64,000 bases of DNA, taken from NCBI GenBank assembly GCA_004431415.1, contig QPMI01000461.1, forward strand, positions 20,364-84,363. The letters are read 5' to 3'. The notes below the pieces were generated by a model, which was not told the DNA's origin, made no database searches, and saw only the letters and a list, made by a program, of their open reading frames with translations. How positions within the stretch are numbered: position 1 is the first letter of the stretch; each line of letters begins with the position of its first letter. The position numbers and the translations under genes are program-made. Below are positions 8,581 through 53,482 of the stretch, piece by piece. The DNA comes from Cyanophora paradoxa CCMP329 (Eukaryota; Plantae; Glaucophyta).

Positions 8581-8586
8581 CCTCTT
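8581..8586 (+). repeat. Left target-site duplication CCTCTT
   Basis: Identical hexamer at 36276-36281 directly after the right TIR. Confidence 0.95.
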
Positions 8587-8657
8587 ACACATAAAGAAAA
8601 ACAAATATTTAACCCTCGCGTTCCGCTCAGGTTAAATATTTGTTTTTCTTTATGTGT
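8587..8657. other. Left terminal hairpin: 28-bp perfect stem, 15-nt loop
   Basis: ACACATAAAGAAAAACAAATATTTAACC-CTCGCGTTCCGCTCA-GGTTAAATATTTGTTTTTCTTTATGTGT. Confidence 0.95.
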
Positions 8658-8884
8658 TTTTATACATAAATATATATGAATTTAACATGAATTTATACAT
8701 AATTTATATATTTTTAACATGATTTAATACAAATTTATATGTAAATATCGATATATATATGATGTAATTAATGTACAATTCGATATGATCATGATATGTA
8801 CAATGTAAAAATGATATAGTCATGATATGTTCCATGTTAATCGATATATTTAATTAATTAATTGCGTGATTCATTTAATGATAA

Positions 8885-9546
8885 GGTGGGGCGGTGGGGT
8901 CTGGTTGGGTCTGTTTTTGGAATTGCTATATTTTTCTTGGCGTTCTAAATTTTTCTGAAAAGTGACCCCACCACACCCCACCACCCCACCCTATCGATTA
9001 ATTTATATTTCCACACCTAATTATATGTTAATTTCATTCTAATATATATCAATTTGAAAAGTGGGAATGCTATAATTTATGGTAATGGTGGGGTGTATGG
9101 TGGGGTGTAATTTGTTACGGAATCAGTGCGGGAATCTCTACGATATCGAAGCCGTAATTAACATGTAAATACCGTTAGATCTGTACAGGTTGGGTGTTAA
9201 TACCGTTAGATCTTTACAGGGTTGGGTGTAAATACCGTTAGATCTGTACAGGTTGGGTGTTAATACCGTTAGATCTGTGGTTGGGTGTAATCTCTCTGGT
9301 ATCATATATTTATCGATGCGGTGGGGCGGTGGGGTCTGGTGGGGCATGTTTTGAAGATTCATTATATTTTGGGATCCGCTCAAAATTTTCTTGAAATTTG
9401 ACCCCACCACACCCCACCACCCCACCCTATCCATTAATTCATACATCACACACTTATTTATATGGTAATTTCAATCTAATATATAGCAATTTGAAAAGTG
9501 GGAATGCTATAAATTATGGTAACGGTGGGGTGTAGGGTGGGGTGTC
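8885..9546. repeat. Two ~230-bp G-tract/AT-core modules (8885-9110, 9320-9546) separated by four ~31-bp tandem units (9164-9290)
   Basis: GGTGGGG/CCCCACC clusters flank AT-rich cores; tandem unit approximately AATACCGTTAGATCTGTACAGGTTGGGTGT. Confidence 0.9.
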
Positions 9547-9810
9547 ATTCCTTACTGATTCACGTAAGATTAACTCGGAAACCGCGCTACTCTATGCTTC
9601 TCCGCTCTCTCCAAACCGCTAAACATACACGTTACCCTCTCTTCTATCATCTCCTTTATTACTGATGTCTTACGCTCCGCTTCCGTACCCTTACCATCAA
9701 TCGTGCGAAATTCAAAAAGTCCCGTGAGCAACCGAAAATGATTTAAACGGAACGCGATACATTGGGGTAAGAAGAAAATATTTTCTCTGTTTCAGATAAG
9801 TAAGGATCAA

Positions 9811-10422
9811 ATGGCGGTTAATATTAATACGGATCGCATGGATTACATGTTTAATGACCTCCCGATTTTAGATGAGGGTTTCGAGTCGACGTCGTTTCTT
9901 GCGGAACTGTTCGATGTCATCTTCTCTATTGATAGTGAGCGAACGCTTTTCTCCTTTATCAACACTTTCTTCAAACCGGAAGACATTATATCTATTGGTT
10001 ACTTCATTGAAGAACCGCATAAGATTGTTATTCGTTCAACTGTTGGGTTTTCCTATGTTAAAATCCATGATTTCTCAATTAAGTATAGCATTGTCGACAT
10101 TCATCCCGAAGATGAAGGTGGATATCAACAAATTGTGAATTTCTGGTCTCTTTACCGATGCACTCCGTACTCTCTTAATGATGTTATCAAAACCATAAAG
10201 CGCGTACAATCTTTCAGACTTCTATATTTTAAGGTTGATCGCAATATGTCCGTTTATTATAAGAAGTTTGAAGAGCATGGATTGAAGATTACACGCCGTG
10301 TTACACTGCGGAAATTCTTGAAAGCCAACGGGGCTAAGTGGAGCCGCACATTTAGAAAGTGGTATATTGAGGAAAACAACCAACTCATCGCTGATATCTT
10401 TTCAATCGCTCCCCAACGCTAA
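9811..10422 (+). CDS. Viral hypothetical protein with a C-terminal DUF5710-like motif
   Basis: 203-aa ORF ending in LKANGAKWSRTFRKWYI, matching the GAxWdxxxKxWYi pattern. Confidence 0.65.
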   Translation: MAVNINTDRMDYMFNDLPILDEGFESTSFLAELFDVIFSIDSERTLFSFINTFFKPEDIISIGYFIEEPHKIVIRSTVGFSYVKIHDFSIKYSIVDIHPEDEGGYQQIVNFWSLYRCTPYSLNDVIKTIKRVQSFRLLYFKVDRNMSVYYKKFEEHGLKITRRVTLRKFLKANGAKWSRTFRKWYIEENNQLIADIFSIAPQR

Positions 10423-11313
10423 AACCTCCAACTGAAACGAATTATCTATACCATTCATATCTACGAGATCACCATAATAATCACGAAACTCTACTGTTAA
10501 CTCTTTAATCACCAAATTACGATCGTTTATTTTTACATACTCACTCACTTCTCCGGTGTGATAGATGTATTTCCCGATATCCTGACTTAATTGTAATCGC
10601 ATTATTGCGCCTTGGTTTTGCGGTTGTGATCGCGGTACTATATTATGGTTGGATGCAAATGGTGCGAGTTCTTTGATGTGCATGTATAAATACTGTTCAG
10701 CGTTCATATCCGCCATCTTTGGACTAACCGCTTTAAACGCCAATGCTAATGGATCTGCTCCTTCAAATGTAATTCCCCACTGTGGGTGATCTGGTGTTAT
10801 TGGTGTTCTTTCATATGATAAGAAATTTTCAGGTGCAAATCGCGACCTGTTTCCTTCAATAAAGTGTTGTACGCTTTCTAATAGTTCTGTGGAGCTGAGA
10901 CCAAGTAATTTTGCGATTCTATTGTTTGCTGCGATGAGTTCAAAAGGGAAATTACAATAAAACTCCAATTTGTATGTAGTCGGGTTGTAATAAATTTTAA
11001 AGTATATTGTTTCGGTAGCATTTGTTTCATAGTTTAACCCATAGTTATAAGGATAAGTAACCCCGAAATGCCCTTGATTGATATAACCACTCGGTAACGG
11101 GTTTAGTTGCTGATTAATATTAACGCCATTGACATTATAACTTATTACTATGTAATCGGTTCCTATCGAATTATAAATGCTGTTCGGAATCTCTGCATAT
11201 ATAACCCGACATTCTTGTGGTCTGGTTATTGGTGTTGTGAGTGCAACCTTGTAAGAGTTTTCTTTTTGTCCAAACTGTCGATCTCTACTATCGACATTGA
11301 CAAGTCGAATCAT
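10402..11313 (-). CDS. Minor capsid (penton) protein 1, single jelly roll
   Basis: N-terminal LVNVDSRDR..YAEIPNSIYN and C-terminal IKELTVEFRDYYGDLVDMNGIDNSFQLEV are typical PLV/NCLDV penton motifs; ATG at 11313 preferred. Confidence 0.85.
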   Translation of the reverse strand: MIRLVNVDSRDRQFGQKENSYKVALTTPITRPQECRVIYAEIPNSIYNSIGTDYIVISYNVNGVNINQQLNPLPSGYINQGHFGVTYPYNYGLNYETNATETIYFKIYYNPTTYKLEFYCNFPFELIAANNRIAKLLGLSSTELLESVQHFIEGNRSRFAPENFLSYERTPITPDHPQWGITFEGADPLALAFKAVSPKMADMNAEQYLYMHIKELAPFASNHNIVPRSQPQNQGAIMRLQLSQDIGKYIYHTGEVSEYVKINDRNLVIKELTVEFRDYYGDLVDMNGIDNSFQLEVLALGSD

Positions 11314-11341
11314 TTTATTATATGAATATAGATTAAAGAAA

Positions 11342-12352
11342 ATGCCCGTGGAATATGTTGAAGTGTCTTCTTTTAAACAGATCGATAACCTCGATGCTCC
11401 GACTTCGCGATTCATTGCCGATCTCCCAAAAACATTTGAGAGTGTAAGAGCGGTTCGCCTTGTTTCGGCTGAATTTTATAACTCCATTCCAATCATTAGC
11501 GGTGATTCGGTCACTGGTGATGCAACGGTAGAGGATGCCTTTACAATCAATTATAGTATTGCAAACGCAAACGTTAATTCTACAAAAGCGCCTGCTCCTG
11601 GGTTTGACGAGTGGTTAAGTATTCGACCCGGTATAGGTCTGGGTTTGGAAGTTATCAATACTCACCAAGAACTGGCTGATAGAATAACCTACCTTTTTAC
11701 GAGACAAACACCAAACCCCGGAATTGTTTGTAAATGGGACCCTGCAAATAAGCGGTTTGTATTCTACGCTCCGCATGAATTCTATATTGCTTTTGTGATA
11801 GATAGAGACCCAAAGGTTTCCGGTGCCGAAGCTGGTAACCGTCGCGCTCGTGTTTTAGGTCTTGATGCCGGACGTAGAGGAAACCGATATATCAAATCGA
11901 GTGTTTACACTGCTCAAACAGATCCCGTATTTACCGGTGCAAATGTACATGGGATCATTTCAACTTTCCCAACTGAAACTTGTAAGGATAATGTAATATT
12001 TGTGAGAGTAAAAGAACTCGGTGACCTCGTCCAATGCGCTGATGGTCTTCTCACTGGATATTTTCACAAGTTGTCCGTTCAAGATAAAAATTTCGCTGAA
12101 CACATAATTTATAATTCAACAGAAGCAAACCCGCTGTATAAATACTTCAATAATAAAATGTCACTATCACAATTAACCGTAGACATTGTAAACGCTCAGA
12201 ATCAATTAATAGATTTCGAAGGGCAACCTGTGCATCTAACATTCGAGATCCGCTATGGCGATGAACCCGCCGGTGATCCCATTTATGAATATTTCAAAAT
12301 GAGAATGAGAGAAACCCACCCCTTCTATCCAAATATTGCCGGATTCGCGTAA
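11342..12352 (+). CDS. Minor capsid (penton) protein 2
   Basis: LPKTFESVRAVRLVSAEFYNS and LSQLTVDIVNAQNQLIDFEGQPVHLTFEI motifs; next to the MCP. Confidence 0.85.
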   Translation: MPVEYVEVSSFKQIDNLDAPTSRFIADLPKTFESVRAVRLVSAEFYNSIPIISGDSVTGDATVEDAFTINYSIANANVNSTKAPAPGFDEWLSIRPGIGLGLEVINTHQELADRITYLFTRQTPNPGIVCKWDPANKRFVFYAPHEFYIAFVIDRDPKVSGAEAGNRRARVLGLDAGRRGNRYIKSSVYTAQTDPVFTGANVHGIISTFPTETCKDNVIFVRVKELGDLVQCADGLLTGYFHKLSVQDKNFAEHIIYNSTEANPLYKYFNNKMSLSQLTVDIVNAQNQLIDFEGQPVHLTFEIRYGDEPAGDPIYEYFKMRMRETHPFYPNIAGFA

Positions 12353-12404
12353 ATTAAGGATCATTCACAGAATTTTTATATTTCTCTATTGTAAAAGAGA
12401 AATC

Positions 12405-13802
12405 ATGGATGTCACCACAACTCTTCAACGTCTTTCCCTCAAAGAGGCGCTAACCACGCCCGAAGAGGCAAAGGCGTTTTTCCTCGATAACTCGCTCATG
12501 CTCGGTCTGGAAGCGAAGACGAAACCCGTTCTCGTAACCGTTAGTCCATCAACAACCTACGATAACAACGTTGGTCAACGCGTTTCTTTCAAACTTCCCC
12601 GCTACAATTTCATCGGTAAAATCGAACTCGCTTTTGATCTTCCCGAACTAACCGCTTTCGAAGGCGATACTGATCTTGTGCGAAACGGTTACACTCGCCC
12701 CGTGGGTTCGCTTGTACAACGCCTTGAAATCTCTTACGGTTCTTACACTTTCCACGTCCCGTCAGATTTCCTGGCGATTTTCCCACTGGTCTACTATTCA
12801 GAGGATCAGTTGGCGAAAAAGAAGCGTTCTATGGGAATGCTCCACGGTATTCCCGCTCACGGAACCAATCGTAAAGGTGGCGCTTTCTTTGTTGAGATCC
12901 CGGTACCGTGGTTAAACAGTTACCTACCACTCGGTGCGCTTTCTGGTGAGATGGTTGTAACTGTTTGGTTCAAAGAAGCCAATAAGGGATACCTTGAAAC
13001 TTCTTACGGTGGTCGCGCTCTTCCGGTTGTTGGTGCTGCTGCGGATCAAACCGAAAATGATGGTCTCGGCTCAGCTACTGGTGTAACTCTTGCTAATGTT
13101 GGTCAAAACATCACCACTGGTACTATTACTGGGTTCGAAGTTGCCGGAACTGTTCCACCAATGACCCATTACATCTCCATTAAGTCTCCTCGTCTTTACA
13201 TGCATGCTATCAATGTTTCCGATGAACTGTTCGCTACGGTTATTGAGAAGGTCAAGACAACCGGTATGGCGATTCCATCACTCGAGATTGGTTTCGTCGA
13301 TGTCACCGGTCTTGCTGCGAAAGGTAACACTCAACCCAACCGAATTAACCTTAGCCAAATCTCCGGTCTGGTTTATGCTCTTCTTGTCTCTGTCCGTGAT
13401 GATGGAGGTATCGATTCTTCTAACGGTTCTCACAGCGTCCTTAAAACGCTTGCGAATGAGAAGAATATCACGATGACTTGTGAGATCAACGGACAGCGTC
13501 TTTATTCCACGGAGCCAATCCCGCTACTCAAAGGTGCGGAACTCATCGCCGATGCCTTCAAATGCTCGAACATGGACAAAGAAGCAAACCGTTACGTTCT
13601 TACAGGTCTACCTTTCTGCGCTGACGGTGAGAAGGCGATTCGCAATATCGCACAGAGTGGATATGTTGACCTTACGAACTCGTCGTCATCGTTCCTAACT
13701 CTGTATCTCCCTGCCGATCGCACAATTACTGTTAACGTTCGCGCTCTCATGCACAGTTTCATAATTTGTGACCGCGATGGAATTCGTAGAATTAATATGT
13801 AA
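12405..13802 (+). CDS. Major capsid protein (double jelly roll)
   Basis: 465 aa, beta-rich; VSFKLPR..IELAFDLPEL, LVQRLEISYG and FFVEIPVPW..YLPLGAL..VVTVWF resemble NCLDV-type Capsid_N patterns; lies between penton and ATPase. Confidence 0.85.
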   Translation: MDVTTTLQRLSLKEALTTPEEAKAFFLDNSLMLGLEAKTKPVLVTVSPSTTYDNNVGQRVSFKLPRYNFIGKIELAFDLPELTAFEGDTDLVRNGYTRPVGSLVQRLEISYGSYTFHVPSDFLAIFPLVYYSEDQLAKKKRSMGMLHGIPAHGTNRKGGAFFVEIPVPWLNSYLPLGALSGEMVVTVWFKEANKGYLETSYGGRALPVVGAAADQTENDGLGSATGVTLANVGQNITTGTITGFEVAGTVPPMTHYISIKSPRLYMHAINVSDELFATVIEKVKTTGMAIPSLEIGFVDVTGLAAKGNTQPNRINLSQISGLVYALLVSVRDDGGIDSSNGSHSVLKTLANEKNITMTCEINGQRLYSTEPIPLLKGAELIADAFKCSNMDKEANRYVLTGLPFCADGEKAIRNIAQSGYVDLTNSSSSFLTLYLPADRTITVNVRALMHSFIICDRDGIRRINM

Positions 13803-13862
13803 ACCATTATTAGTAAGATATCGTTATTTTTATCTATCTTTATTAAGAAGATCTACAACACC

Positions 13863-14645
13863 ATGGATGATGTCCCCGAATTTAACGCTGGGGAAATGAT
13901 AAAACCACCTTTTCGCGTCCTCGCAATCGGAAAATCAGCTACGGGCAAGTCAGAAGCGGTAAAGTATTGGTTAAAGCAACTTCACGATGCAAAAAAGATA
14001 GATGTGGTTCTCGTTGTAAGTGGGACATCATTCAATCATTTTTGGAGAGAAGTTGCAACGTTGGAACTCGGTAAATGGGATGCGCCTTACATCGCTAAAC
14101 TTCTCGATGAAAGACAAGAGAAAATAGAGAAAGGAGAACCCGTTAACCAATTGTGTGTAGTTCTCGATGATCTTATAGATAATGAGATAGTCGATCTAAC
14201 CCGCGACAAAATAATTGGCTCTCTTTACAGTCGTGGGCGCCATTCGAAAATTTCGATTATTTGCATAACTCAGAAACTGCGTAAGGTTTCTTCAACCATT
14301 CGCGTTAATTCGGATTATGCGATGTTTCTTAGCGCCGCCAATCGCAAAGAACTGGAAGCGATTGAAGAAGAATACAATATTATGCGGGATAAAGACGCTT
14401 TCTATAAGATGTTTGAGGAGTATGTACATTCCTATCAGTTTCTCATTTGGTCATCCGCTGATTATTCGGTAAAGTATTATGTAGATAAAGCGGAACTGGT
14501 TAAAAACTTTGGATTCCCACGGTTTCATCGGAAGCCCAAAAAGAAAGAAGATGAATTACAACCGCCACAGAAAGAAGAAGCGCCAAAAGAGATTAAAAGC
14601 GCTGTTCATACTAATAAGTTGATGCGATATAAGAGTGGACTTTAA
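13863..14645 (+). CDS. A32-like (FtsK/HerA) genome packaging ATPase
   Basis: Walker A GKSATGKS, Walker B VVLDD, SRGRHSKISIICITQK, IRVNSDY. Confidence 0.95.
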   Translation: MDDVPEFNAGEMIKPPFRVLAIGKSATGKSEAVKYWLKQLHDAKKIDVVLVVSGTSFNHFWREVATLELGKWDAPYIAKLLDERQEKIEKGEPVNQLCVVLDDLIDNEIVDLTRDKIIGSLYSRGRHSKISIICITQKLRKVSSTIRVNSDYAMFLSAANRKELEAIEEEYNIMRDKDAFYKMFEEYVHSYQFLIWSSADYSVKYYVDKAELVKNFGFPRFHRKPKKKEDELQPPQKEEAPKEIKSAVHTNKLMRYKSGL

Positions 14646-14673
14646 AATTATCTTCATTATTATTAAAGATACA

Positions 14674-15405
14674 ATGCCGCCGAAACGTAGAGGTGTTCCC
14701 GCCGGTGCTATTTCATATTCTGGCGGTGAAAGTTATGGATCTCTCAATACTACACCAATGAAATTTGACGGAGTCAATCAAGTAAAAGCAACTCAACAAG
14801 AAGAAGACCCTTTAAATGCCGCTTATGAAGAAGCGCCCGGCGATAAAGCGCCTCAAACATCACAAAGTGATCAGTTGAACATCTCCCCCGAAGTCTCGAA
14901 GATGAAGGCGGTCGGTGAAGGTGCGCGTCGGATTATCGGTGCTGCCGATGATCGTGAACTTGGTCTACAAGATCTTGCACTTGCCCGCAAAGGTCAAGGT
15001 GTTTCGAAAGAATCGGACAAAGTTATTCAATCGATGGCGGGTGAAGTTACTTACAAGGTTGCGCCAACTCAAAACATCCACCGAATCCCGAAGGCTCAAT
15101 GGGACGAGATGACCGCTAAACTAAAAGACCTTGAAGCAAAGTCAAGCGCGCTTGAACAGTATGTAACAGAGAAGAAAGAACGCGCTAAAATTAAGGAGAT
15201 GCTGCGTAAAGAAGTTTTCCGAATGGGAATTACTGGTGTTCCCGATAAACAATTTATTGGTAAGAAAGAGACACAAATAGATGAGCAAGCGGTAGATGAA
15301 ATGAAGACAAAGACACAAAAGGGAACCATTGAACCTGGCGCTACAAAAGCGGAAGTAGAGAAAGCCGTAGCACCAACAGTATACAAGCGGAGAGTTTGGT
15401 TATAA
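14674..15405 (+). CDS. Viral hypothetical protein (basic N-terminus, coiled coil; possible core protein)
   Basis: ORF starting MPPKRRG after an AT-rich leader. Confidence 0.65.
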   Translation: MPPKRRGVPAGAISYSGGESYGSLNTTPMKFDGVNQVKATQQEEDPLNAAYEEAPGDKAPQTSQSDQLNISPEVSKMKAVGEGARRIIGAADDRELGLQDLALARKGQGVSKESDKVIQSMAGEVTYKVAPTQNIHRIPKAQWDEMTAKLKDLEAKSSALEQYVTEKKERAKIKEMLRKEVFRMGITGVPDKQFIGKKETQIDEQAVDEMKTKTQKGTIEPGATKAEVEKAVAPTVYKRRVWL

Positions 15406-15431
15406 ATATATATCTTTTAAAGAGGAAATCA

Positions 15432-15680
15432 ATGGACTTTTTACAAAAGATCATAGAGATGTTTAATCTCCATGTGGTAAGCAACTGTCACAGTGGATGC
15501 TGTGATACAACCGTTGAGCTTGGTTTTTCAGATACCGAAGATAATGTGACGGAAGGTAGAGGATCCCGGAGACATTCGGTAGACTCCACCCATTCAGAAC
15601 CGGCTTCAAATGGTCGCCGGTTTTCCGTAGATCAAAGCGATGATTTACGAAGACAAGCGTTTGAACATCGCGGTAATTAA
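15432..15680 (+). CDS. Small viral hypothetical protein (SNCHSGCC motif)
   Basis: 82-aa ORF in the gene-dense array. Confidence 0.55.
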   Translation: MDFLQKIIEMFNLHVVSNCHSGCCDTTVELGFSDTEDNVTEGRGSRRHSVDSTHSEPASNGRRFSVDQSDDLRRQAFEHRGN

Positions 15681-15802
15681 AATATTTGTAATAAGTATCG
15701 GAAAATGCTCGAAGAAGTCTATAATATTATCTTAGCGAAACATCAGATTTATGCCGTTAAATCTGCAATTGAAGAACGTAGACGGGAGCTTGTCCGGTCG
15801 CC

Positions 15803-15811
15803 AAAAATTGA
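15803..15811 (+). promoter_or_regulatory. Mimiviridae-type early promoter motif AAAAATTGA
   Basis: Exact 9-mer about 70 nt upstream of the primase-helicase ATG at 15883. Confidence 0.6.
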
Positions 15812-15882
15812 CAACCCAAAAAGGATTTAAAGGTACTGCGATATTACACACTGATAAAATATTTTCTCTGCTTAAAATAAGG

Positions 15883-18597
15883 ATGGCTGCGTTTGCCGAT
15901 GATGTTAGCGTTGTTGAACTTGAATTTGATAGCGACGAATCCATGGATTCTCCCACTGCGAAAAATGTAACAAGCGCTGATGGTATCAGTTATAGAATCC
16001 GTAAAATCATTGCTCAACGCAATAGATATAATGAGGATGCCGAATATCGCGAACTGAAAAAGAAGAAGGTATTAGAAGCGTATTACCGTCGTAAAGCGGA
16101 GGAGGGAACCAATATGGGAAAGCGTGGAAGACCGCGCAAGTATCAAGTAACTCGGGTTTATCTTGATCTTGATAGGTTCGTGGATTTGAAGCCAAATCTT
16201 GAAGACAACTACAAGGAAGCCGAAGAAATCGTTAGAGAGATGCGTGAGAAATTACATGATCTGACCGGCGCTACTATTGCTGTATCTGTTCGTCATCGTC
16301 GTGTTCACCTTCTAAAAGAAGATGTTGACAAATTTAAGGTCTCTGCCCATTTCGTTTTCACTGATCTCTGTTGTCGCCATGAAGATATCCCGAAACTCTT
16401 TAATGAAATGGGGCTTGTCAAAAATGTAGATTTCGACAGTGGTGTTTATAGTACAGGTCAGAATCTTGTGTGTCTTGGTTGTTGCAAGGGAATAGATATA
16501 GATTTGGAGAACAAGAGGGCGCGCGATATTGATAAGAACGTTCTATTTACTAAGTTCGTGGATTGCAAGAATATGCATGATAGCGATTTCTTCGTTCAAT
16601 TTACCGATTGCCCCACATTGCTGGTAGACGAGACAAACTTTCACGTCTTCTCAGTGAACAAAACAGAGAAGAAGGAAGCGGAGCCGAAGAAGGAAGCCGA
16701 ACCAAAGAAGGAAGCGAAGCCGAAGAAGGAAACCAAGAAAACCACTAAAAAGGAAGCCAAGAAAGAAGAGGTGGAAGAGGTGGAAGAGGAAGAGAAAGGT
16801 GGAGAAATTACATTTGATCTTATGTACGCTGTTGTAATGGGTCTGAATGCTGAACGTGCGGATACTTATAAATCCTGGATTGATACAGGCATTGCAATCA
16901 TCAATGCTTGTGAAGACAACAAGATACCACGCAAGCAACAATTCGAAATATTCCATGACTTCTCACAAAAAAGTGAAAAGTTTGATTACGACGAATGCAA
17001 TGACAAGTTTATGAGTCTTTGCAAAGGCAAGAAGATGGTAGAAGGCAAACGGCTAACGTACGGTTCGCTGGTCTATTGGTTGAAAAAGGATGATATCGAA
17101 CTTTATAATGAGTTGTTTCCCACCAAGTATGCATTCTTGCCCGAAGATTCCGACGACATCGATTATAAAACCGCAAAGATCCCACCAATCGTTGAGGATT
17201 ACGCTACGCATCGTCTGTATTTCAATGCAAGGATGCACCACATTGAAATGCTGGGTATTGTGATGCATTGGGATGAACAACAGCTTGCGTGGATCCCGAA
17301 AGATAGCCAAAAACTCGGCTCCAAACACTATCCCCACCTGATGCATAAAATCGTTCTGAACAAGGGAACCGATAAAGAAGTTGAGAAATGGATCCCCTCA
17401 TTTCCGGAATGGATCAAAGACCCACAGGCGACACGTTCCATGTACGTGGATTTCCTCCCGCCTCCGGCTAAACTGAGCGCCAAATGCAAATCTGTGTTTA
17501 ATCTGTATCCTGGCTTTAAGATTGATCATGAGGTAGATGAAATCAAGGAAACACTACCGGAAGATGTGACCGAAGATATGATTAAGCCGTTTCTCACACA
17601 TCTTCACCTGATGTCGGGAGAAGACGATAACACATACCAATACCTTCTTAAATGGTTCGCACACATGATGCAAAAACCTGGTGAACTTAACGGAGTGTCA
17701 ATTATCCTAATTGGTGAACAAGGCACCGGTAAAAACGTGTTGTTTGATCTGTTCGAGAAAAGCATTCTGGGTGATGCTCTTTCATATTCGACCGGCAAAC
17801 CGAAAGATGACCTGTTTGGGCGCTTTGCTCACAATCGCGAAGACAAGATCTTAATAGTTGTTAATGAGGCATCGGGTAAAGACACATTCGAAAATAGCGA
17901 TATTCTTAAAGACCTTGTCACTACTAAAAAAATTACTATTGAACACAAGGGAATAGATTCATACGACAAAAAGAATTTCGCGCGTATTGTGTTTACAAGT
18001 AACAACAGTGTCCCTGTGAAGATCGAAGCGGGTGACCGTCGATTTGTTGTAGTGGAAGTGAGTAAACGATACTGTAAGAATGTGGAGTACTTCACACCTC
18101 TTCTGAAATGGCTGAATGACATAAGGAATATCCGCAACATCACCCACTTCTTGCGCACAAAGGTGGATTGTGATAATATTAACTGGCAGGAAGAAAGACC
18201 CAAGACCAATAAGTATTATCTGGTTCAGCAAATCTCCGCACCTATCATTCTCATGTTTGCAAAGTGGTTAATGGATAGTGGGGAGATTACCGAAATCAAG
18301 TGTAAGTTAAGCGGTCTTGCTTCTACATGGGAGTTATTCAAGACCTTCATTACGGAAAATAAATATAAGAACGACTACAACAGTAAGCGGTTCTATACGG
18401 AGATGCGAGGCACTTCATACATTCTTGTGAAAACCGCAAATGGTAAACCATACTACCATTTCATCTGGAACGAAATGCTGGCGGAATTCCGTAAGTTGAA
18501 GCTAATTGATGATGATTCGATTAAGGAAGAACCTAACCCCAAGATTCCCGCCAAGAAAGCTGGGACGAAATTCGAAGATTCCGACGTTGAAGCGTAA
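15883..18597 (+). CDS. Primase-helicase: AT-hook + AEP-like + PriCT-2 + SF3 (D5-like) helicase
   Basis: KRGRPRK; VYLDLD, SAHFVF, FDSGVYS; ERADTYKSWIDTGIAI; Walker A GEQGTGKN, Walker B VVNEA, VFTSNN, GDRRF. Confidence 0.9.
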   Translation: MAAFADDVSVVELEFDSDESMDSPTAKNVTSADGISYRIRKIIAQRNRYNEDAEYRELKKKKVLEAYYRRKAEEGTNMGKRGRPRKYQVTRVYLDLDRFVDLKPNLEDNYKEAEEIVREMREKLHDLTGATIAVSVRHRRVHLLKEDVDKFKVSAHFVFTDLCCRHEDIPKLFNEMGLVKNVDFDSGVYSTGQNLVCLGCCKGIDIDLENKRARDIDKNVLFTKFVDCKNMHDSDFFVQFTDCPTLLVDETNFHVFSVNKTEKKEAEPKKEAEPKKEAKPKKETKKTTKKEAKKEEVEEVEEEEKGGEITFDLMYAVVMGLNAERADTYKSWIDTGIAIINACEDNKIPRKQQFEIFHDFSQKSEKFDYDECNDKFMSLCKGKKMVEGKRLTYGSLVYWLKKDDIELYNELFPTKYAFLPEDSDDIDYKTAKIPPIVEDYATHRLYFNARMHHIEMLGIVMHWDEQQLAWIPKDSQKLGSKHYPHLMHKIVLNKGTDKEVEKWIPSFPEWIKDPQATRSMYVDFLPPPAKLSAKCKSVFNLYPGFKIDHEVDEIKETLPEDVTEDMIKPFLTHLHLMSGEDDNTYQYLLKWFAHMMQKPGELNGVSIILIGEQGTGKNVLFDLFEKSILGDALSYSTGKPKDDLFGRFAHNREDKILIVVNEASGKDTFENSDILKDLVTTKKITIEHKGIDSYDKKNFARIVFTSNNSVPVKIEAGDRRFVVVEVSKRYCKNVEYFTPLLKWLNDIRNIRNITHFLRTKVDCDNINWQEERPKTNKYYLVQQISAPIILMFAKWLMDSGEITEIKCKLSGLASTWELFKTFITENKYKNDYNSKRFYTEMRGTSYILVKTANGKPYYHFIWNEMLAEFRKLKLIDDDSIKEEPNPKIPAKKAGTKFEDSDVEA

Positions 18598-18603
18598 CAA
18601 ATC

Positions 18604-18832
18604 ACACCCCACCCTACACCCCACCCTACACCACACCACACATAACCTCCTTGCATTTTCTTATTTTTATAAACTATTTTATAGATTGATTTGTATGTGA
18701 ATATAGTAAATAATAGAGAAGGTGGGGGGGTGGGGTGTGGTGGGGTCAAATTTTAAGAAAAGTTGGGGACGCTCAAAATTCTAAGGAATTTCAAAAATAT
18801 GCCCCACCTGACCCCACCCGCCCACCCTATCG
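18604..18832. repeat. Internal diverged copy of the TIR G-tract module (origin-like)
   Basis: CACCCCACCCTACACCCCACC..GGTGGGGTGTGGTGGGGTCAAATTT..ATGCCCCACC.GACCCCACC is colinear with 35317-35543. Confidence 0.9.
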
Positions 18833-18876
18833 AACGCGTTGAATATCCAAAATAAAAATGTTCCTTTATAATAAAG

Positions 18877-21800
18877 ATGCCCCGCCAAACTAATCGACTC
18901 ATCAAAGAAAAGAAAAATGAAATTATCGGATTGTTAGGAACTCTCTTAGTAACCGGTGAGATTACCGAAGCGGAATTCGATAGAGAAGCCGCCATTTTAG
19001 ATAGAAGACCACGATTAGGTCAACTCACAGAAATAGCAAATGATCTTTATGATCGTATGCAGAGAATGGAGGAATTTATGGGTGAAGGACAAAGATTAGG
19101 AGCAATTGACCCGGACATTGAAGATGGACAAGCAATGAATCAAGCGTATTCATGGTTAACTTATCGCGCCCGAAACGAAGTAGTTGTAGATGCTATCGAT
19201 TTTCTTGAAAGAATCGCACCAAGTCTACCGCAACGCATTAAAACCCGCTTAGATCAACTAAGAGCGGTTAAGGTTCGTCTAACTTTCGTTTGTAGATTTA
19301 CCAAAGTTGCAAATCCTCGAATCTTTATAACGAAATTCATACATAGCGATTATTTTGTAATCACTAAATCCCGTAACATTAACACCGAAGTCCGTAAAGC
19401 ATTACAGAAAATGCAAGAAGAAATGATCCAAGTAGATAGTTACCGTTTACAACGCATCGAAATACTTAGAGGTGTCATTATGTCATATGCGCCGGTTGGC
19501 GGTTGTTATTTCGCAACTCCCGAATGGATCGCATCTAAAAAAGCTACAGTAAACGTAAAAAATATCGATGGACAAGATTGTTTTAAATATGCTATTTTGG
19601 CTTACCTACATCGAAAGGATATAAACAAACACAAGAGTAATGAACCTTATCAATATCGCAGATGGTTAAACGAACTCAATTTTGACGGTATTCAGTTCCC
19701 GGTAGCATGTGATGCTGAGGTAATCGATCGTTTCGAAGAATTGAACCCGGAACTCTCTATTAATATTTACGGTGCTGATAATGAGAAACAGTGTTTTTAT
19801 CCTCTTCATCAATCAAGTAACCCAAGACGAAAGACCAAGATTAACCTTTTACTCATCGAAAACACCGAAGACGATAGGGGACACTACATTACAATCATGT
19901 CATTTAGTCGTCTTTTAAAGACCACTTTCGATAAAGCATGTGATGGGCGCATTTACTATTGTGAAACCTGTCTATCGCGTTTCAGAACTCAGGAGAAATT
20001 AGACCTACATATAGAAGCAAACCGCTGTATCGATTGGAGGGAGAGCAAAGGCAAATGTCCGAAGCCCGGAAGTACAATAGAATTCGGTCTACAACATCTA
20101 CGTAAAACGGTCTGGCTCCCTGTGATCTGTTATGTTAAAATTGAAGATCATTCGGTAGCAATAGATGCACTGAGAAGTAAAAGAGAGATTAAAGCAGTCT
20201 CACTGAGAGTGATTATGGGTGAAGAAATGAAACTATACCATTTTGAAGGAAATGATCCACTCAGTTCTTTATTTGCAACTCTACAAGAGATCAGACCCGA
20301 AGTAATTGAAACGCTTTTTAGAAATATCCCAATGCATCCACTCACAGAAGATCAAAAGGCGGAATACAAGATAACAAAACACTGTTATATTTGTTCTCAG
20401 AGATTCACCCACGAAAACTTCCCGGTTCGCGATCATTGTCACCAATCTGGTGATTTTATCGGCAAAGCATGCCGAAACTGTAACCTTCACCGCCGAATCT
20501 CAAAACAAAGCAAAGTAGCTATCGTGGTTGATAAAATGGATGAATGTGGACACGGGATATTCCGCAAGATCGCACAACAAGACGATAAACTACGTGTGGA
20601 AATTTTAAGCAAGAACTTTAATCAATACCTATCCCTTCAATGGGGTATGTGGAAATTCATAGATGCATCACATTTTATGGATTTCCAAAGTGAGAATGTC
20701 GATGATCTTATGTCTAAATTCGAGAATTTCCGTAAACTTGCATATTCTCAATATGGATTAGATCCCGCACATTACGTTAGCGCACCTGGTTTATCCTGGG
20801 ACGCAATGCTTAGACACACAAAAGTAAAGATTGAACTTATCGATGATGTAGAGAAATACGAATTTATTGAGAAAGCCATTCGCGGTGGATTTGCAACCAT
20901 GCCCACACGATATGCAAAGGTAGAAGAACCCGATGATCACATAGTATTGTTGGACGCGAATAATCTTTACGGTTATGCACTTAGCCAACCACTACCGATT
21001 GGAGATTATCGATGGGAAGAGATCACAGAGGCACTTAAAGAGGTTGAAGGGCGAAGCGCATTTATTGAAGTTGATCTTGAATACCCGACATTCCTTGAAG
21101 ATCATTATGATTTCCCACTCATTGTGAATAAAGAATTGATTACCAAAGATATGCTCGGAGATTATCAACGAAAACTATTAGATTTGACGGGCGAAAAGAT
21201 TAGCAAAGACCCCAAACTCACAGCGTCTTTTACACCTAAATATAAGTACGTGATTGCTCGACCTCTTCTTAACTACATCGTCGAAAAAGGTGTAATAATT
21301 ACTAAGATACATAAAGTTCTCTCATTTGCAACCTCACCATTCATGAAATCTTATATTGGTCTTAATACTCTACTACGCCACGAATCAACTAACAATTTCG
21401 AAAGTGACTTTTTCAAACTAATGAACAATGCAATTTATGGGAAATGTTTGGAATCTTGTAGGGGTCGCTCAACTGTCAAGATCGCTAACAGCGAGAAATT
21501 GTGTAAGAAATACGCAGCAAGTCCGCTTATCAAGGCAACAAATGTAATAAACGAAAATGCGGTTGCCTTTGAGATGTATTCGAAGCATGTAAACTTAGAT
21601 AAACCCGTAGCAATTGGCGCTTTCGTTTTGGATTTCGCGAAACTACATAATTATCAATTCTTCTATGATGTGATCAGGAAGAAATGGGATTCAGCTAAAC
21701 TACTATTTCATGATACCGATTCGTTTTGTTTGTTCCTAAAAACCAAGAATCTCAATGAAGATATGAAAGCAATAGGTGAACATCTCGATAGAAGTAACTA

Positions 21801-31877: not shown

Positions 31878-32720
31878 ATGGGCGAATATAATCGAGTCCA
31901 ATTACCAGTTTACGCATTGGGTGCGCCCGCGGTTCACTTTCGACAACACGAGGTTGCCGACGAAATTCGCGGTGTGGAATCGACGGAACGCGCTAACTCC
32001 GCGAATGCATTTGATAAAAACAGCATGATACGTGTTAAAGAACTACGCGCCGACAAGAATTCGGGAGTGGTTAAAACGACTCAACTTCTTGTAACAAATG
32101 CGAATTTTAACGCGGGAATCGGGCAACCTGACGCATGGGGTGTGGATATTAGAACGTTAGATTTTGACGGAGAACGTGCCGCCGCTGTTGTCCGATCGGG
32201 AGGCGCTGTTATTGGCGGTGGTTGTCGTGTGTCGGGTATGCTTGCATCCTCCGTTGCTGTTACCGATATTCCCGATACTCTACCTGAACATGCGGACAAT
32301 CCGCAACGTATCCGTATGTACACTCCATGTGGAGACTATCCGTATGTGTTTGGAATGGTCAGAGTTGGGGTAGATAACGTAAATGCAACACAACCCGATG
32401 GAATTTTGGGAAATTGGTTATTACCAAATATTGCTATTCCTAAATCTATTGAGTCTATATGTCGTTCACAAAATGGTATTATCGGTCCAGCTTATACTTT
32501 CTTTGTTCAGGGAATCGGACGCGGTAGAGGTTGGGTGGAATTCGACAACCAGAACCCCGCTACGTTTAATGTTTGGACAACAGAAGTAGGAGGTTACGAT
32601 ATTCTCATTTTCGGAATGCGAACAGATCCAGCCGCTGTGGCGGCTACACGTGGTCTCAATCCCGATAACAACCTAAATAACTTCTACGATGATCCGTTCC
32701 CAGGTGATCCCACACCATAA
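31878..32720 (+). CDS. Fibre/spike paralogue C (shared N-terminal domain, non-C1q C-terminus)
   Basis: RVKELRADKNSGVVKTTQLLVTNANFNA..RSGGAVIGGG. Confidence 0.75.
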   Translation: MGEYNRVQLPVYALGAPAVHFRQHEVADEIRGVESTERANSANAFDKNSMIRVKELRADKNSGVVKTTQLLVTNANFNAGIGQPDAWGVDIRTLDFDGERAAAVVRSGGAVIGGGCRVSGMLASSVAVTDIPDTLPEHADNPQRIRMYTPCGDYPYVFGMVRVGVDNVNATQPDGILGNWLLPNIAIPKSIESICRSQNGIIGPAYTFFVQGIGRGRGWVEFDNQNPATFNVWTTEVGGYDILIFGMRTDPAAVAATRGLNPDNNLNNFYDDPFPGDPTP

Positions 32721-32739
32721 TTATGTTTTAATATATTAA

Positions 32740-33585
32740 ATGGCGGCACCCGCTCCACCCGAGCGTATCTTAACAGCGCAACTTTCATTAGCCGCGCCGG
32801 CAAATCACGTATTACAACATGCTGTTATCGATAATGTCGATGGTCTCGAATCTACCGAACTTGCACCTACTCTTAATACTTTTGGTGATACGCATAAATT
32901 GCGACTGAAAGAGTTACGATGTGACAAAAATAACGGAATCGTTAAAACTACGAAACTTCTTGTTACAAATGCAAACTTTAACGCTTTTTATGGAGATCCC
33001 GATAGTTACAATGATGATAACAAGGTTACCAACTTCGCTTATGAATCGAGAAACGGAGCGATTAAATGTAGATCGGGTGGCGCTTATATTGGGGACGGAC
33101 TAAGGGTCGGTGGTATCATCGGAGCGCCTCTAATCGTAAATGACCAACCAAACCCCGATGATGAAAACACACGTATTAGGACGTATTGCCCAGGTATGAA
33201 TGAGCCGTATATTATTAAGATTTATACAATCGTTATTAGTTTACAAACAGCGGTAGCCGATGTATTAGAACCCTTAGGAAATCATTATAGATATAGAGAC
33301 ACGATACCAGAGGACATTTACGCATTATGTAGAAGAACCGACGGAGCAAGACCGCGCCTTACGATACACATTATCCCCATAGATAATTTCGGTCAAGCGT
33401 TTCACTCAATACCTCTTTTAGATACGCAAGACAACCAATTTATAATAAGAGCGACACAACTTGGAAATTATCGAGTCATTATGTATGCCGAAAGAAACGA
33501 CGCAATCGCAACAGCTAACCGATTCGGTCAATATCTTAATACCAATCTATACAATCCCGTCGGCGGTAGCGATCCACAACCATAA
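32740..33585 (+). CDS. Fibre/spike paralogue D
   Basis: RLKELRCDKNNGIVKTTKLLVTNANFNA..RSGGAYIGDG; colinear with paralogue C. Confidence 0.75.
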   Translation: MAAPAPPERILTAQLSLAAPANHVLQHAVIDNVDGLESTELAPTLNTFGDTHKLRLKELRCDKNNGIVKTTKLLVTNANFNAFYGDPDSYNDDNKVTNFAYESRNGAIKCRSGGAYIGDGLRVGGIIGAPLIVNDQPNPDDENTRIRTYCPGMNEPYIIKIYTIVISLQTAVADVLEPLGNHYRYRDTIPEDIYALCRRTDGARPRLTIHIIPIDNFGQAFHSIPLLDTQDNQFIIRATQLGNYRVIMYAERNDAIATANRFGQYLNTNLYNPVGGSDPQP

Positions 33586-33605
33586 ATCTAAGGTATATAT
33601 AGGGA

Positions 33606-33878
33606 ATGGATGAAAAAACAAGAAAGTTTATAGATACCGCTATGTCAGTCCATGGTAAGGATAAATTTGATTATAGCGACACTGTTTATAAGAAAGCGCA
33701 AGAAAAGGTATCTGTTAGATGCCTACAATGTAATAAAGTCTTTCAGACGTACGGATTTAATCACATTAAGGGGTCAGGATGTAGACAGTGTTCTAAGAAA
33801 CACTCACATGCATACAGGAAAAAAACTACATGGGGAATAGTAATAGAAGAGAAGCCAATTATGTTGTACTTTGATTGA
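33606..33878 (+). CDS. Stand-alone DUF723-like zinc-ribbon protein
   Basis: FIDTAMSVHGKDKFDYSDTVY..KVSVRCLQC..HIKGSGCRQC. Confidence 0.75.
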   Translation: MDEKTRKFIDTAMSVHGKDKFDYSDTVYKKAQEKVSVRCLQCNKVFQTYGFNHIKGSGCRQCSKKHSHAYRKKTTWGIVIEEKPIMLYFD

Positions 33879-34674
33879 TTTCGTAGTTAGTCATTATGAG
33901 ATGGTTCCTTTTCTTTTTTGATATACCATACACTTTACCATATGTATGTCGAATAAAGGGTTTAAATAGCAATTTCATTAATAAAGCATCATTAACAACC
34001 ATCATAACTTTGCATTTCGCGGTCTTAAATAGATCTTCTAAATCCAAAAAGAATTTTTCCAAATCGAATTCTACATTTTCGTAAAAGTCATTATTGCTAT
34101 TAACGTATGGAGGATCAAGAAATATGAATGCATCCTCATCATCTTTGTATTTCAACACAATATCCCGATAATCCCCAAGAGATAAGTTCACATCTCGTAG
34201 GAAATCATCGTATGGTATCTTCTTTTTAAGAGTTGTATATGAACTCACCTTAACGTTTCGTTTTTTGAAATCACGGAGGGTTTTAACATTTAAAACGCTG
34301 TTTTTAAGAAGATAGAAATTATGCGCTAAGTAATCTATTGCATCTTTACGATCATGTTGTAGAAACTTCTTATAAACTTCTTTATGCTCTTCTATATTGC
34401 TTACTGCTTCGAACTGTTGAAGACTATCTAAAAGTTTTACTTTACTGTTTGGGTCTTTCATTGTATTCAAGAAAAGTATATGTGTTTCGTCGTTATCATT
34501 CATAAAGTAATCAAAACGTTCTTTATGCTTTTCCCAAAGATAGAAACTAAATGCACCTGAACCACAAAATGGTTCTATTATTTTATTTATGCCTTCTAAA
34601 TCGATAAAAGGATTGATTGTATCCATTTCATTGTATTTATTACCGACATACTTATGGTAAAAGTGAGTCTTCAT
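33859..34674 (-). CDS. D12-class (Dam-like) N6-adenine DNA methyltransferase
   Basis: YVGNK, IIEPFCGSGA (motif I), MNDND, FIFLDPPY (motif IV). Confidence 0.93.
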   Translation of the reverse strand: MKTHFYHKYVGNKYNEMDTINPFIDLEGINKIIEPFCGSGAFSFYLWEKHKERFDYFMNDNDETHILFLNTMKDPNSKVKLLDSLQQFEAVSNIEEHKEVYKKFLQHDRKDAIDYLAHNFYLLKNSVLNVKTLRDFKKRNVKVSSYTTLKKKIPYDDFLRDVNLSLGDYRDIVLKYKDDEDAFIFLDPPYVNSNNDFYENVEFDLEKFFLDLEDLFKTAKCKVMMVVNDALLMKLLFKPFIRHTYGKVYGISKKKRNHLIMTNYEINQSTT

Positions 34675-34698
34675 TTACCATAGATAAAGAAAAACAAA

Positions 34699-34854
34699 TT
34701 ACATATGGAGACGGGATAAAGAAATTAAGACTTTACCAGTCTTGTTTCTTGTAATAATGCAAGTATCAAAGCAACTTGGACATGTTTTATGATAATATAC
34801 CATTATGATATCAACCAACTCATACGGGAATACTTTTGCTAAGATGGTTCGCAT
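34699..34854 (-). CDS. 51-aa mini-ORF with an F-box-like N-terminus
   Basis: Manual translation MRTILAKVFPYELVDIIMVYYHKTCPSCFDTC..; fills the gap between MTase and AdoMetDC. Confidence 0.45.
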   Translation of the reverse strand: MRTILAKVFPYELVDIIMVYYHKTCPSCFDTCIITRNKTGKVLISLSRLHM

Positions 34855-34894
34855 CCTACTAATTCCGTTTTTAATTTTTCTATATAATTCATAA

Positions 34895-35293
34895 ATGAAT
34901 CATCGCGGATTCCATGTAATGTTAGATTACAAGTTCAACCATCCATTAATGATAGGATTGGACAACTTAGAGACCACAACGAAGTGGTTAATGCAATTTT
35001 TTCAATCTATTATTCAAGAACAAGGTATCAGAGTAGTACACAAGCACTGCGAGATTTTCGATGGTGGTCTTTCACCTCCGGGTTTTGCTATGGTTCTTCT
35101 CCTTGATGAGAGTCATTTAACCGCTCATTGTTACTCAGATCAGGGAATGTTAGCAATCGATATATTCACTTGTGGTACGGAAGCGGAGCGTAAGACATCA
35201 GTAATAAAGGAGATGATAGAAGAGAGGGTAACGTGTATGTTTAGCGGTTTGGAGAGAGCGGAGAAGCATAGAGTAGCGCGGTTTCCGAGTTAA
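34895..35293 (+). CDS. speD: S-adenosylmethionine decarboxylase proenzyme (prokaryotic class 1B, pyruvoyl-dependent)
   Basis: GFHVMLD, PPGF..VLLLDESHLTAHCY (E|SH self-cleavage site), AIDIFTCG. Confidence 0.92.
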   Translation: MNHRGFHVMLDYKFNHPLMIGLDNLETTTKWLMQFFQSIIQEQGIRVVHKHCEIFDGGLSPPGFAMVLLLDESHLTAHCYSDQGMLAIDIFTCGTEAERKTSVIKEMIEERVTCMFSGLERAEKHRVARFPS

Positions 35294-36275
35294 TCTTACG
35301 TGAATCAGTAAGGAATGACACCCCACCCTACACCCCACCGTTACCATAATTTATAGCATTCCCACTTTTCAAATTGCTATATATTAGATTGAAATTACCA
35401 TATAAATAAGTGTGTGATGTATGAATTAATGGATAGGGTGGGGTGGTGGGGTGTGGTGGGGTCAAATTTCAAGAAAATTTTGAGCGGATCCCAAAATATA
35501 ATGAATCTTCAAAACATGCCCCACCAGACCCCACCGCCCCACCGCATCGATAAATATATGATACCAGAGAGATTACACCCAACCACAGATCTAACGGTAT
35601 TAACACCCAACCTGTACAGATCTAACGGTATTTACACCCAACCCTGTAAAGATCTAACGGTATTAACACCCAACCTGTACAGATCTAACGGTATTTACAT
35701 GTTAATTACGGCTTCGATATCGTAGAGATTCCCGCACTGATTCCGTAACAAATTACACCCCACCATACACCCCACCATTACCATAAATTATAGCATTCCC
35801 ACTTTTCAAATTGATATATATTAGAATGAAATTAACATATAATTAGGTGTGGAAATATAAATTAATCGATAGGGTGGGGTGGTGGGTGTGGTGGGGTCAC
35901 TTTTCAGAAAAATTTAGAACGCCAAGAAAAATATAGCAATTCCAAAAACAGACCCAACCAGACCCCACCGCCCCACCTTATCATTAAATGAATCACGCAA
36001 TTAATTAATTAAATATATCGATTAACATGGAACATATCATGACTATATCATTTTTACATTGTACATATCATGATCATATCGAATTGTACATTAATTACAT
36101 CATATATATATCGATATTTACATATAAATTTGTATTAAATCATGTTAAAAATATATAAATTATGTATAAATTCATGTTAAATTCATATATATTTATGTAT
36201 AAAAACACATAAAGAAAAACAAATATTTAACCTGAGCGGAACGCGAGGGTTAAATATTTGTTTTTCTTTATGTGT
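35174..36275 (-). repeat. Right terminal inverted repeat (1102 bp) with terminal hairpin at 36205-36275
   Basis: Reverse complement of 8587-9689. Confidence 0.95.
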
Positions 36276-36281
36276 CCTCTT
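36276..36281 (+). repeat. Right target-site duplication CCTCTT
   Basis: Matches 8581-8586. Confidence 0.95.
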
Positions 36282-46600: not shown

Positions 46601-46706
46601 GGGCTACACCCGCTTCGAAGCCTCCGCTCTCTCTGCCGATGCAGGTGCCCTTTTCGTCCTCGCCACCCGGTCGAGGAAAGGGCAGTCCCTACTCGTCTTC
46701 GACCTC
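43678..46706 (+). CDS. GC-rich multi-exon gene with repeated [IV]KRE motifs and beta-propeller-like segments; interrupted by the foldback element
   Basis: AIKRE/VKRE repeats, LVELIDITDSESDE, WPTAIAFSLHDNNVVLVGT; CTGAC..CAG intron ends near 44692-44703 and 45544-45572; continues after 57761. Confidence 0.45.
45928..46706 (+). repeat. 779-bp direct duplication flanking the foldback element, left copy
   Basis: CCGGCGCCCCGCCCCG..TCTTCGACCTC recurs at 56984-57761 with only a few small indels. Confidence 0.93.
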
Positions 46707-53200: not shown

Positions 53201-53482
53201 TGTTTTACTTGGTGATATTTGCCGACTAGGCCCCTTGGTGGCAGGTTGGCAGTCTCAAGTAGCGCCCTCGACCTGACTCCTTCGCGTCGTTCGGGGCCGC
53301 GACTGCCCCCAAATATGCACCCGCCCAATTTGAGGGCGGGGAATCCGAATCTGACGCTCCTACAAGCTCGTTCGTGCTCCTAAGCTCGGCGCGGCGAGCT
53401 TGCAATTCTTTGCACATGATCATGAGTCTCTTCACGCCATAAAAACATACTGAGTAAGTGGCATCTATGAGCGCCCGGAGAC
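50295..53482 (+). repeat. Tandem array of ~700-bp units (4 complete + 1 partial)
   Basis: Units start with CGCGCTACGAGCTAGCACC at 50295, 50993, 51695, 52397 and 53094. Confidence 0.95.

Follow-up and report, generated by a model that had tools for sequence, protein, structure and literature searches.

How does an integrated virus that carries two different replicases copy its DNA, and does such a virus form a lineage of its own? These questions are raised by a 27,689-bp element at positions 8587-36275 of a 64,000-nt stretch (the window) of the glaucophyte Cyanophora paradoxa CCMP329 (assembly GCA_004431415.1, contig QPMI01000461.1, positions 20,364 to 84,363, forward strand). Its ends were set by the tips of its terminal inverted repeats (TIRs) and by the flanking CCTCTT, and its interior is filled by 20 genes. 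A sequence-only reading had seen here a recent, intact insertion of a virus with a hybrid gene set, possibly of an undescribed lineage. Our analysis upholds a young, rve-integrated polinton-like virus (PLV) of a protist with two replicases. We consider it probable that the element is one recently integrated member of a PLV family with many copies, in which an exonuclease-less DNA polymerase (pPolB) and a separate AEP-SF3 primase-helicase would act as a two-enzyme replisome. Statements about published work refer to the accessible parts of the cited sources.

The two replicases

The replication and integration genes are:

15751..18597, plus strand: AEP-PriCT2-SF3 primase-helicase (DUF5906 and PriCT_2), with SF3 Walker A/B and motif C
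18877..22158, plus strand: predicted group-2 (Alpha/HNH-type) pPolB of 1093 aa, with a terminal protein (TP)-like region, the vOTU residues Cys235/His336 and an EndoVII-like insert (Endonuclease_7)
22344..23642, plus strand: rve (DDE) integrase, with D132, D194 and E230

The pPolB frame is open over 1093 aa and its polymerase motifs are intact; its exonuclease is degenerate and shortened. The protein was aligned with the best 120 of 1224 matches, only one of which is named as a virus, an Alpha-class adintovirus PolB. The Alpha class has been equated with group 2, and the HNH insert is specific to pPolB2 (Jeong et al., 10.1101/2023.08.22.554363); the group numbering differs in Bulzu 2025 (PMC12220804). 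By its kinship to Alpha-class PolB and its HNH insert, the enzyme is assigned to group 2, as the sequence-only reading had it, but with its degenerate exonuclease it is not a canonical member.

Among 119 homologues (the 120 without one protein, P0002), the ExoI Asp and Glu, the ExoII Asn and the ExoIII Tyr and Asp are kept in all 119, and the ExoII Asp in 118. Of these six residues, the element's pPolB keeps the ExoI Glu only and P0002 keeps none. The segment between two anchors measures 33 aa in these two proteins as against 123-175 aa in the others, about 95 aa being gone. Motifs A, B, C and KxY and the vOTU Cys/His are kept in both. Identity between the two is 46% overall, 50% in the palm, 57% in the vOTU domain, 31-41% in the exonuclease remnants and 37% in the TP-like region. 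In an unrooted palm tree of 33 rows (the element's pPolB, P0002, 24 of the other 119 homologues and seven of eight IMG/VR loci with a related pPolB) they were paired on a long stem (100/100, 1.2 changes per column). The ExoII motif was seen in seven of the eight IMG/VR loci, the eighth yielding no polymerase frame; one of the eight shares the ATPase with the element and three share rve.

These observations bear on an alternative in which pPolB is a decaying passenger of a transient replicase replacement, and the AEP-SF3 protein alone replicates the element from terminal hairpins (described below). The missing exonuclease, an altered TP motif and a TIR relic standing between the two replicase genes speak for it, as does a preprint on Halocafeteria elements (10.64898/2026.07.28.741278), where terminal palindromes mostly accompany replicases other than pPolB and the presence of two replicases is taken to be a passing state. 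On the other hand, the 1093-aa frame is open and all tested polymerase and vOTU residues are kept. Since P0002, at 46% identity, has the same deletion and the same kept residues, the sequences point to an exonuclease loss that is old and under long selection rather than to decay. We therefore regard the passenger explanation as unlikely.

Two separate losses of the pPolB exonuclease, in mavirus and in Tlr1-like PLVs, have been reported, each with the gain of a helicase, and compensation was proposed (10.1101/2024.03.18.585575). The element's group-2 pPolB would fit as a third such case, on a different polymerase branch. That it represents a third independent preplasmivirus loss of proofreading with helicase gain, caught between protein priming and hairpin priming, seems doubtful to us. 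In the literature, including PMC13215967 and with figures and bioRxiv supplements set aside, we found no report of exonuclease loss in the pPolB of the glaucophyte element family.

The TP-like region is present, yet the Ser motif of 117 of the 119 homologues is altered, with a Ser one column off. Because the region is kept and its Ser motif is altered, priming by protein and priming by hairpin are both possible. In the primase-helicase, AEP-like DxD/H/D motifs were read by eye against what we take to be their consensus, and a search for relatives of this protein gave three distant matches. The rve match is weak in Pfam (E 0.006); a PHROG transposase was matched at 1e-11.

Ends, insertion site and internal repeat

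The boundary features and the internal repeat copy are:

8581..8586, plus strand: left copy of the target-site duplication, CCTCTT, single copy in the empty-site contig
8587..9689, no strand: left TIR, 1103 bp, opening with a 71-nt hairpin and holding a G-rich subunit of about 240 bp twice and 31-bp tandem repeats
18598..18876, minus strand: worn copy of the TIR subunit in right-TIR orientation, 174/229 aligned bases identical
35174..36275, no strand: right TIR, closing with the same 71-nt hairpin at 36205-36275, by sequence comparison and fold
36276..36281, plus strand: right copy of the target-site duplication, CCTCTT

The TIRs (8587-9689 and 35174-36275) are identical at 1102/1102 aligned bases and differ by one 1-base indel, and CCTCTT stands on both sides, so that the exact duplication and near-identical TIRs of the sequence-only reading are confirmed. 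The GC content of the element is 0.39, against 0.55 and 0.61 in the flanks. We compared the window with four short-read runs; the short-read contigs are of a single species, and 20 of the 24 runs listed contain 60-64% of the sampled words. The empty CCTCTT allele that had been proposed as a check was found: in one run a contig joins the left flank, through a single CCTCTT, to the right flank, and a second run gave a contig of equal length and layout. Because these empty-site contigs carry a single CCTCTT, the 6-bp duplication is real. The empty-site flank has a high summed depth and a repeat-like appearance, and the empty form may for this reason derive from a paralogous copy.

Each of the four runs contained related contigs, 1331-2182 per run as matched on 10.5 kb, mostly less than 99% identical. 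One contig matches the final 286 bases of the TIR exactly and then runs into low-depth sequence; we interpret it as a putative sister insertion. Summed contig depth was considered as a copy-number estimate and rejected, since depth is not a measure of copy number. It might be argued from the hundreds of similar contigs, the internal TIR-like sequence, a sharp CpG change in the fibre block and a right junction spanned by none of the contigs listed that the element is a chimera, built from tandem host insertions or by mis-assembly of similar copies, which never moved as one unit. We hold this to be most improbable: from the identical TIRs at both ends, the duplication with its single-copy empty form and the presence of one copy of each core gene, it follows that all 27.7 kb moved together at the latest insertion.

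The target (7300-8586 and 36276-38500) is nearly invariant, high-depth host sequence with minus-strand frames to which no family was assigned. It is probably a young repeat, and the insertion appears to interrupt one host minus-strand frame. When 27 flank frames were compared with Pfam, one gave a row, weak and sub-threshold, and Rfam had no match within the window.

At both termini the last 71 nt fold back on themselves into a hairpin, whose 28-bp stem is without mismatch and takes in the outermost base, and whose loop is 15 nt long (left, 8587-8657). The right-end hairpin (36205-36275) has a z of -8.3, which none of 200 shuffles reached, and no further stem of at least 14 bp with a loop of at most 30 nt was found within the element. 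Judged from this fold, a displaced strand could prime itself at the terminal hairpin. The same model has been proposed for Halocafeteria elements with palindromes at their TIR tips, which mainly carry non-pPolB replicases (10.64898/2026.07.28.741278). An 18/20 copy of the hairpin stem lies at 34680-34699, directly upstream of the start of the Dam-like methylase gene, and T-rich motifs similar to the stem precede several other genes. The stem may double as a promoter.

The two subunit copies in the left TIR lie 435 bp apart. The worn internal copy separates the AEP-SF3 gene from the pPolB gene; it scored 197, compared with 55 for the best of 352 control windows and 49 for the best of 200 shuffles. 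This relic may be the scar of a capsid and AEP element fused to a pPolB and rve module, or else a reused promoter or origin unit. Barth et al. (10.64898/2026.10.13.758929) have described replicase modules enclosed by repeats, one of their examples being from C. paradoxa. G4-type runs, with seven matches to a simple G-quadruplex pattern, were seen only in the TIRs or the relic (8865-9570, 18600-18830 and 35300-36000). For the glaucophyte element family, terminal hairpins and an internal TIR relic were not found in print, figures and bioRxiv supplements again aside.

Capsid genes, protease and relatives

The capsid and packaging genes, including the major capsid protein (MCP) of the type seen in nucleocytoplasmic large DNA viruses (NCLDV), are:

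10402..11313, minus strand: likely penton (minor capsid protein) 1; the open reading frame (ORF) reaches 11415 from the first ATG; Atlas 0.97-0.98
11342..12352, plus strand: putative penton 2, by weak likeness to penton 1
12405..13802, plus strand: NCLDV-like MCP, by language-model features and published HHpred rows of relatives
13863..14645, plus strand: A32-type packaging ATPase (Pox_A32), with Walker A/B motifs

The language-model (Atlas) features of the MCP are NCLDV-like (0.98, with a recognition value under the tool's threshold), its rows being Capsid_N/Capsid_NCLDV clusters. Published HHpred rows for its relatives (PMC10120064) support the same type, and the assignment made earlier is retained. 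Two AlphaFold2 models, with mean predicted local distance difference test scores (pLDDT) of 36.6 and 37.0, were too poor for a fold; Foldseek with the low-pLDDT model gave nothing at E<=0.001 against the PDB and a single match, an unrelated tail protein (7e-4), against BFVD. The top six VIA-align rows include poxvirus D13 and the PBCV-1, EhV-201 and faustovirus capsids, all at Z<5, and phmmer/hmmsearch against the PDB gave nothing useful for the MCP or penton 2. Of the two pentons claimed earlier, the first is likely, with Atlas look-alikes that include DUF5901 and Sputnik V18/19. The second is suggested by its weak similarity to the first (global z 5.5, 0/300 shuffles; BLASTP E 0.046; nothing by hhalign).

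The sequence-only reading had also stated that a maturation protease is absent. No peptidase family was matched in any of 100 stop-to-stop frames of at least 60 aa by a Pfam scan, which also missed the MCP, the pentons and vOTU; a protease motif scan gave a single match, inside a fibre-like ORF. With these family and motif scans we found neither an adenain/Ulp1 maturation protease, for which no profile-profile search was made, nor the virophage-type cysteine protease core gene. A protease hidden among the hypothetical ORFs, which the earlier reading had allowed for, was rejected, as the 203-, 243-, 82- and 88-aa ORFs have no fitting Cys/His. The absence of an adenain/Ulp1 enzyme thus holds, but 'no protease' needs a qualifier, since pPolB carries the vOTU-type Cys235/His336 pair. 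All nine protease columns are likewise 0 in the 156 glaucophyte elements of Table S6 in Bulzu 2025 (PMC12220804).

A word-based search with the MCP had a sole match, P0001, a Cyanophora paradoxa EukProt protein 57% identical over its full length. The MCP profile (HMMER) found six proteins among 1.84 billion representatives, namely P0001, three proteins at 35, 25 and 21% identity and two fragments; none of the six is a named polinton. Pattern scans of IMG/VR and JGI contigs gave 5 and 98 candidate stretches (viral and metagenome), of which none was confirmed. Related contigs in C. paradoxa had already been noted by Starrett et al. 2021 (PMC8502044), and Bellas 2023 (PMC10120064) reported 366 C. 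paradoxa MCP genes, 272 and 94 of them in two 'new' clusters without a group name (20 and 28 by column count; cluster criterion 25% identity over 30% length). P0001 is row 106 of its Table S2, which places our MCP within that criterion, and 88 of the first 100 residues are identical, by manual count, to the 465-aa C. paradoxa MCP of row 107.

In Bulzu 2025 the columns for the 156 glaucophyte elements, which are per-gene counts and not co-occurrence, give by our column count rve in 85, tyrosine recombinase in 0, PF03175 in 49, PriCT_2 in 15, D5_N in 40, Dam in 10, lipases in 89 and AdoMetDC (S-adenosylmethionine decarboxylase) in 66. The polinton MCP profile matches two of them and the virophage profile none. 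The same paper mentions, for a C. paradoxa PLV, a fibre of the PTR-PTR-H_lectin type; fusions of discoidin and patatin are named there for PLVs of rhizarians and glaucophytes. The inventory of our element (rve, no tyrosine recombinase, no maturation protease, AdoMetDC, lipase) agrees with this tabulated family; Peptidase_S74, present in 37 of the 156, has no match here.

A wholly undescribed lineage would be in keeping with the six MCP profile matches, the lack of an MCP relative by pattern scan in IMG/VR or JGI contigs, the unnamed clusters, the polinton MCP profile match in only 2/156 glaucophyte elements, and the main text of the 2026 PLV framework of Bellas and Sommaruga (10.64898/2026.06.19.733378), which is silent on glaucophytes. 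We nevertheless find it very unlikely, for the MCP type is published with sequence in Bellas 2023, the cargo and the missing protease are tabulated and the fibre and discoidin-patatin fusion named in Bulzu 2025, and catalogued but unnamed is not undescribed. By its sequence, the element is a member of a catalogued but unnamed C. paradoxa endogenous virus family. The earlier claim of novelty falls in large part; what survives of it are the unnamed MCP clusters, the six profile matches and the fact that no paper devoted to this family was found in the literature. The hybrid gene set is present but no longer distinctive, because pPolB with a D5-type primase-helicase is reported by Barth et al., including a C. 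paradoxa contig, and in the Halocafeteria preprint. As a combination the genes are not new and amount to ordinary mosaicism; what is new is modest, namely the exonuclease-less group-2 pPolB, the terminal hairpins and the relic inside the element.

With the C. paradoxa elements of Bellas 2023 and Bulzu 2025 our element shares the MCP type, A32 ATPase, penton, rve, the lack of a tyrosine recombinase and of a maturation protease, AdoMetDC, lipase, Dam methyltransferase, PTR-PTR-H_lectin fibre and discoidin-patatin, whereas exonuclease loss, hairpins and a TIR relic go unmentioned in their text and tables. Polintons/Mavericks and Alpha adintoviruses likewise have a group-2/Alpha pPolB with TP-like, vOTU and HNH/EndoVII domains, rve, long TIRs, a 6-bp duplication and an A32 ATPase. 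Unlike canonical Polintons, whose pPolB keeps the Exo I-III motifs (Jeong et al.), the element has an exonuclease that is dead by motif, no adenain/Ulp1 protease, an extra AEP-SF3 gene, terminal hairpins and, as judged by published cluster labels, an MCP probably outside the Mavpol clusters. Mavirus-type virophages and Tlr1-like PLVs also combine a helicase with a pPolB without a working exonuclease (here by motifs), and rve and a separate SF3 helicase are present in mavirus too; in their polymerases, of another branch, most of the exonuclease domain is gone, while ours keeps remnants and the HNH insert, its helicase is fused to AEP and the virophage protease is lacking. By these comparisons the element resembles a polinton in how it integrates, and mavirus in combining a helicase with an exonuclease-less pPolB, but it falls outside both canonical Polintons and virophages. 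Halocafeteria seosinensis virophages and PLVs have palindromes at TIR tips beside the target-site duplication, and some carry pPolB with a D5 primase-helicase, but the palindromes go mainly with non-pPolB replicases, and host and capsid differ. Zora, Zephyr and Mriyaviruses (10.64898/2026.06.19.733378) are similar in size (20-30 kb), in an NCLDV-like capsid module, in variable replicases and, in some, in rve or lipase; our element had no HUH, VLTF2/3 or Tlr6F match in the 100 frames of the Pfam scan, which missed other known genes.

Based on these data we propose the following course for a two-enzyme replisome. The 6-bp duplication would stem from the rve integrase. Once the element is excised, DNA would be unwound in front of pPolB by the SF3 helicase, which would so take over from the missing exonuclease, a role already suggested for helicases in mavirus and Tlr1-type PLVs. 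Copying would begin at the termini, from the fold-back 3' hairpin or from a TP released by vOTU, to which we give equal weight. The A32 ATPase would package the DNA into a double-jelly-roll capsid without need of maturation cleavage; attachment and entry would be the task of the lectin/C1q fibres and of patatin-discoidin. An earlier fusion of a capsid and AEP element with a pPolB and rve module is suggested by the internal relic.

Several points weigh against this reading. The element is known here from sequence alone, and the link between exonuclease loss and helicase rests on this single element, P0002 being known without its gene neighbourhood. The pPolB survey covers the best 120 of 1224 matches, the palm tree has a long stem and no outgroup, and the altered TP linking motif is without a nearby Gly/Pro. 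The exact gene combination may also be a minority of the family, given the per-gene counts of 15/156 for PriCT_2 and 49/156 for PF03175.

If the doubtful reading of a third independent loss, caught between protein priming and hairpin priming, is true, a small integrating virus that unites fold-back ends with a D5-like primase-helicase and a capsid of NCLDV type would be a living model of the step from polinton towards poxvirus-style replication, in which the EndoVII-like insert of pPolB perhaps resolves concatemers. Although many copies of the family exist in an alga that is cultured as a model, it has so far been counted rather than described. Should exonuclease loss track helicase and hairpins across its copies, two recent proposals would become testable in one genome: an exonuclease/helicase trade-off in viral polymerases, and hairpin-primed replication of PLVs.

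Cargo, fibre genes and neighbouring repeats

The remaining genes of the element are:

9811..10422, plus strand: protein of 203 aa with a single Cys and without a protease motif; weak DUF5710 match at the C terminus
14674..15405, plus strand: charged protein of 243 aa, no family, no Cys
15432..15680, plus strand: protein of 82 aa, no family
23639..25198, minus strand: patatin-like phospholipase fused to discoidin (F5/8C), by profile matches and catalytic motif
25248..29423, plus strand: large fibre-like protein, repetitive inside, with two PTR stretches and an H-type lectin at the C terminus
29443..30513, plus strand: fibre-like protein with a weak C1q head; its N-terminal domain of about 120 aa is common with the three next paralogues
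30537..31573, plus strand: fibre-like paralogue with a C1q head, split over three frames, with breaks near 30710 and 31255
31576..31842, plus strand: protein of 88 aa, no family
31839..32720, plus strand: fibre-like paralogue, 293 aa, shared domain only, no family match
32740..33585, plus strand: fibre-like paralogue, 281 aa, shared domain only, no family match
33606..33878, plus strand: small zinc-finger protein that resembles, by profile match, a DNA-binding repeat known from phage endonucleases
33859..34674, minus strand: Dam-like (D12 class) adenine methyltransferase (MethyltransfD12), with a DPPY motif
34895..35293, plus strand: S-adenosylmethionine decarboxylase proenzyme (AdoMet_dc), with an ESH motif

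Catalytic motifs were found in the ATPase, helicase, integrase, patatin, methylase and AdoMetDC. Profile matches, motifs and the shared domain bear out the cargo listed in the sequence-only reading (AdoMetDC, Dam-like methyltransferase, patatin-discoidin and five fibre-like genes). The N-terminal domain is common to four of the five fibre-like genes, two of these four being without a family match. The description of the element as intact with open ORFs has to be relaxed to nearly intact, as one of the fibre-like genes (30537-31573) is spread over three frames. At both of its breaks short-read contigs differ by one base, in homopolymer runs, and one-base length differences also occur at a flank position (4/4 runs) and at the TIR indel. 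These breaks are for that reason a candidate, and likely, assembly error.

Over the fibre block (27587-31586) the CpG observed/expected ratio is 0.29-0.52, while 1-kb windows elsewhere in the element give 0.81-1.61. The contrast suggests that the cassette had an origin, or a history of methylation, of its own. Between 28000 and 33600 the summed contig depth is much higher over the shared N-terminal parts of the fibre genes than over their C-terminal heads, and many contig joints skip repeat units. The depth pattern agrees with fibres built of modules, whose receptor-binding ends vary from one family member to another.

A second repeat structure lies outside the element at 45925-57762. Its 2.5-kb inverted arms (46707-49234 and 54446-56983, 96% identical) enclose GC-rich 40-bp minisatellites and about 4.5 tandem 700-bp units (50295-53486), and it is flanked by 786-bp direct repeats (starting at 45925 and 56981, 99% identical). 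The frames tried gave no Pfam match, nor was there an Rfam match. Its layout is possibly that of a foldback-type element.

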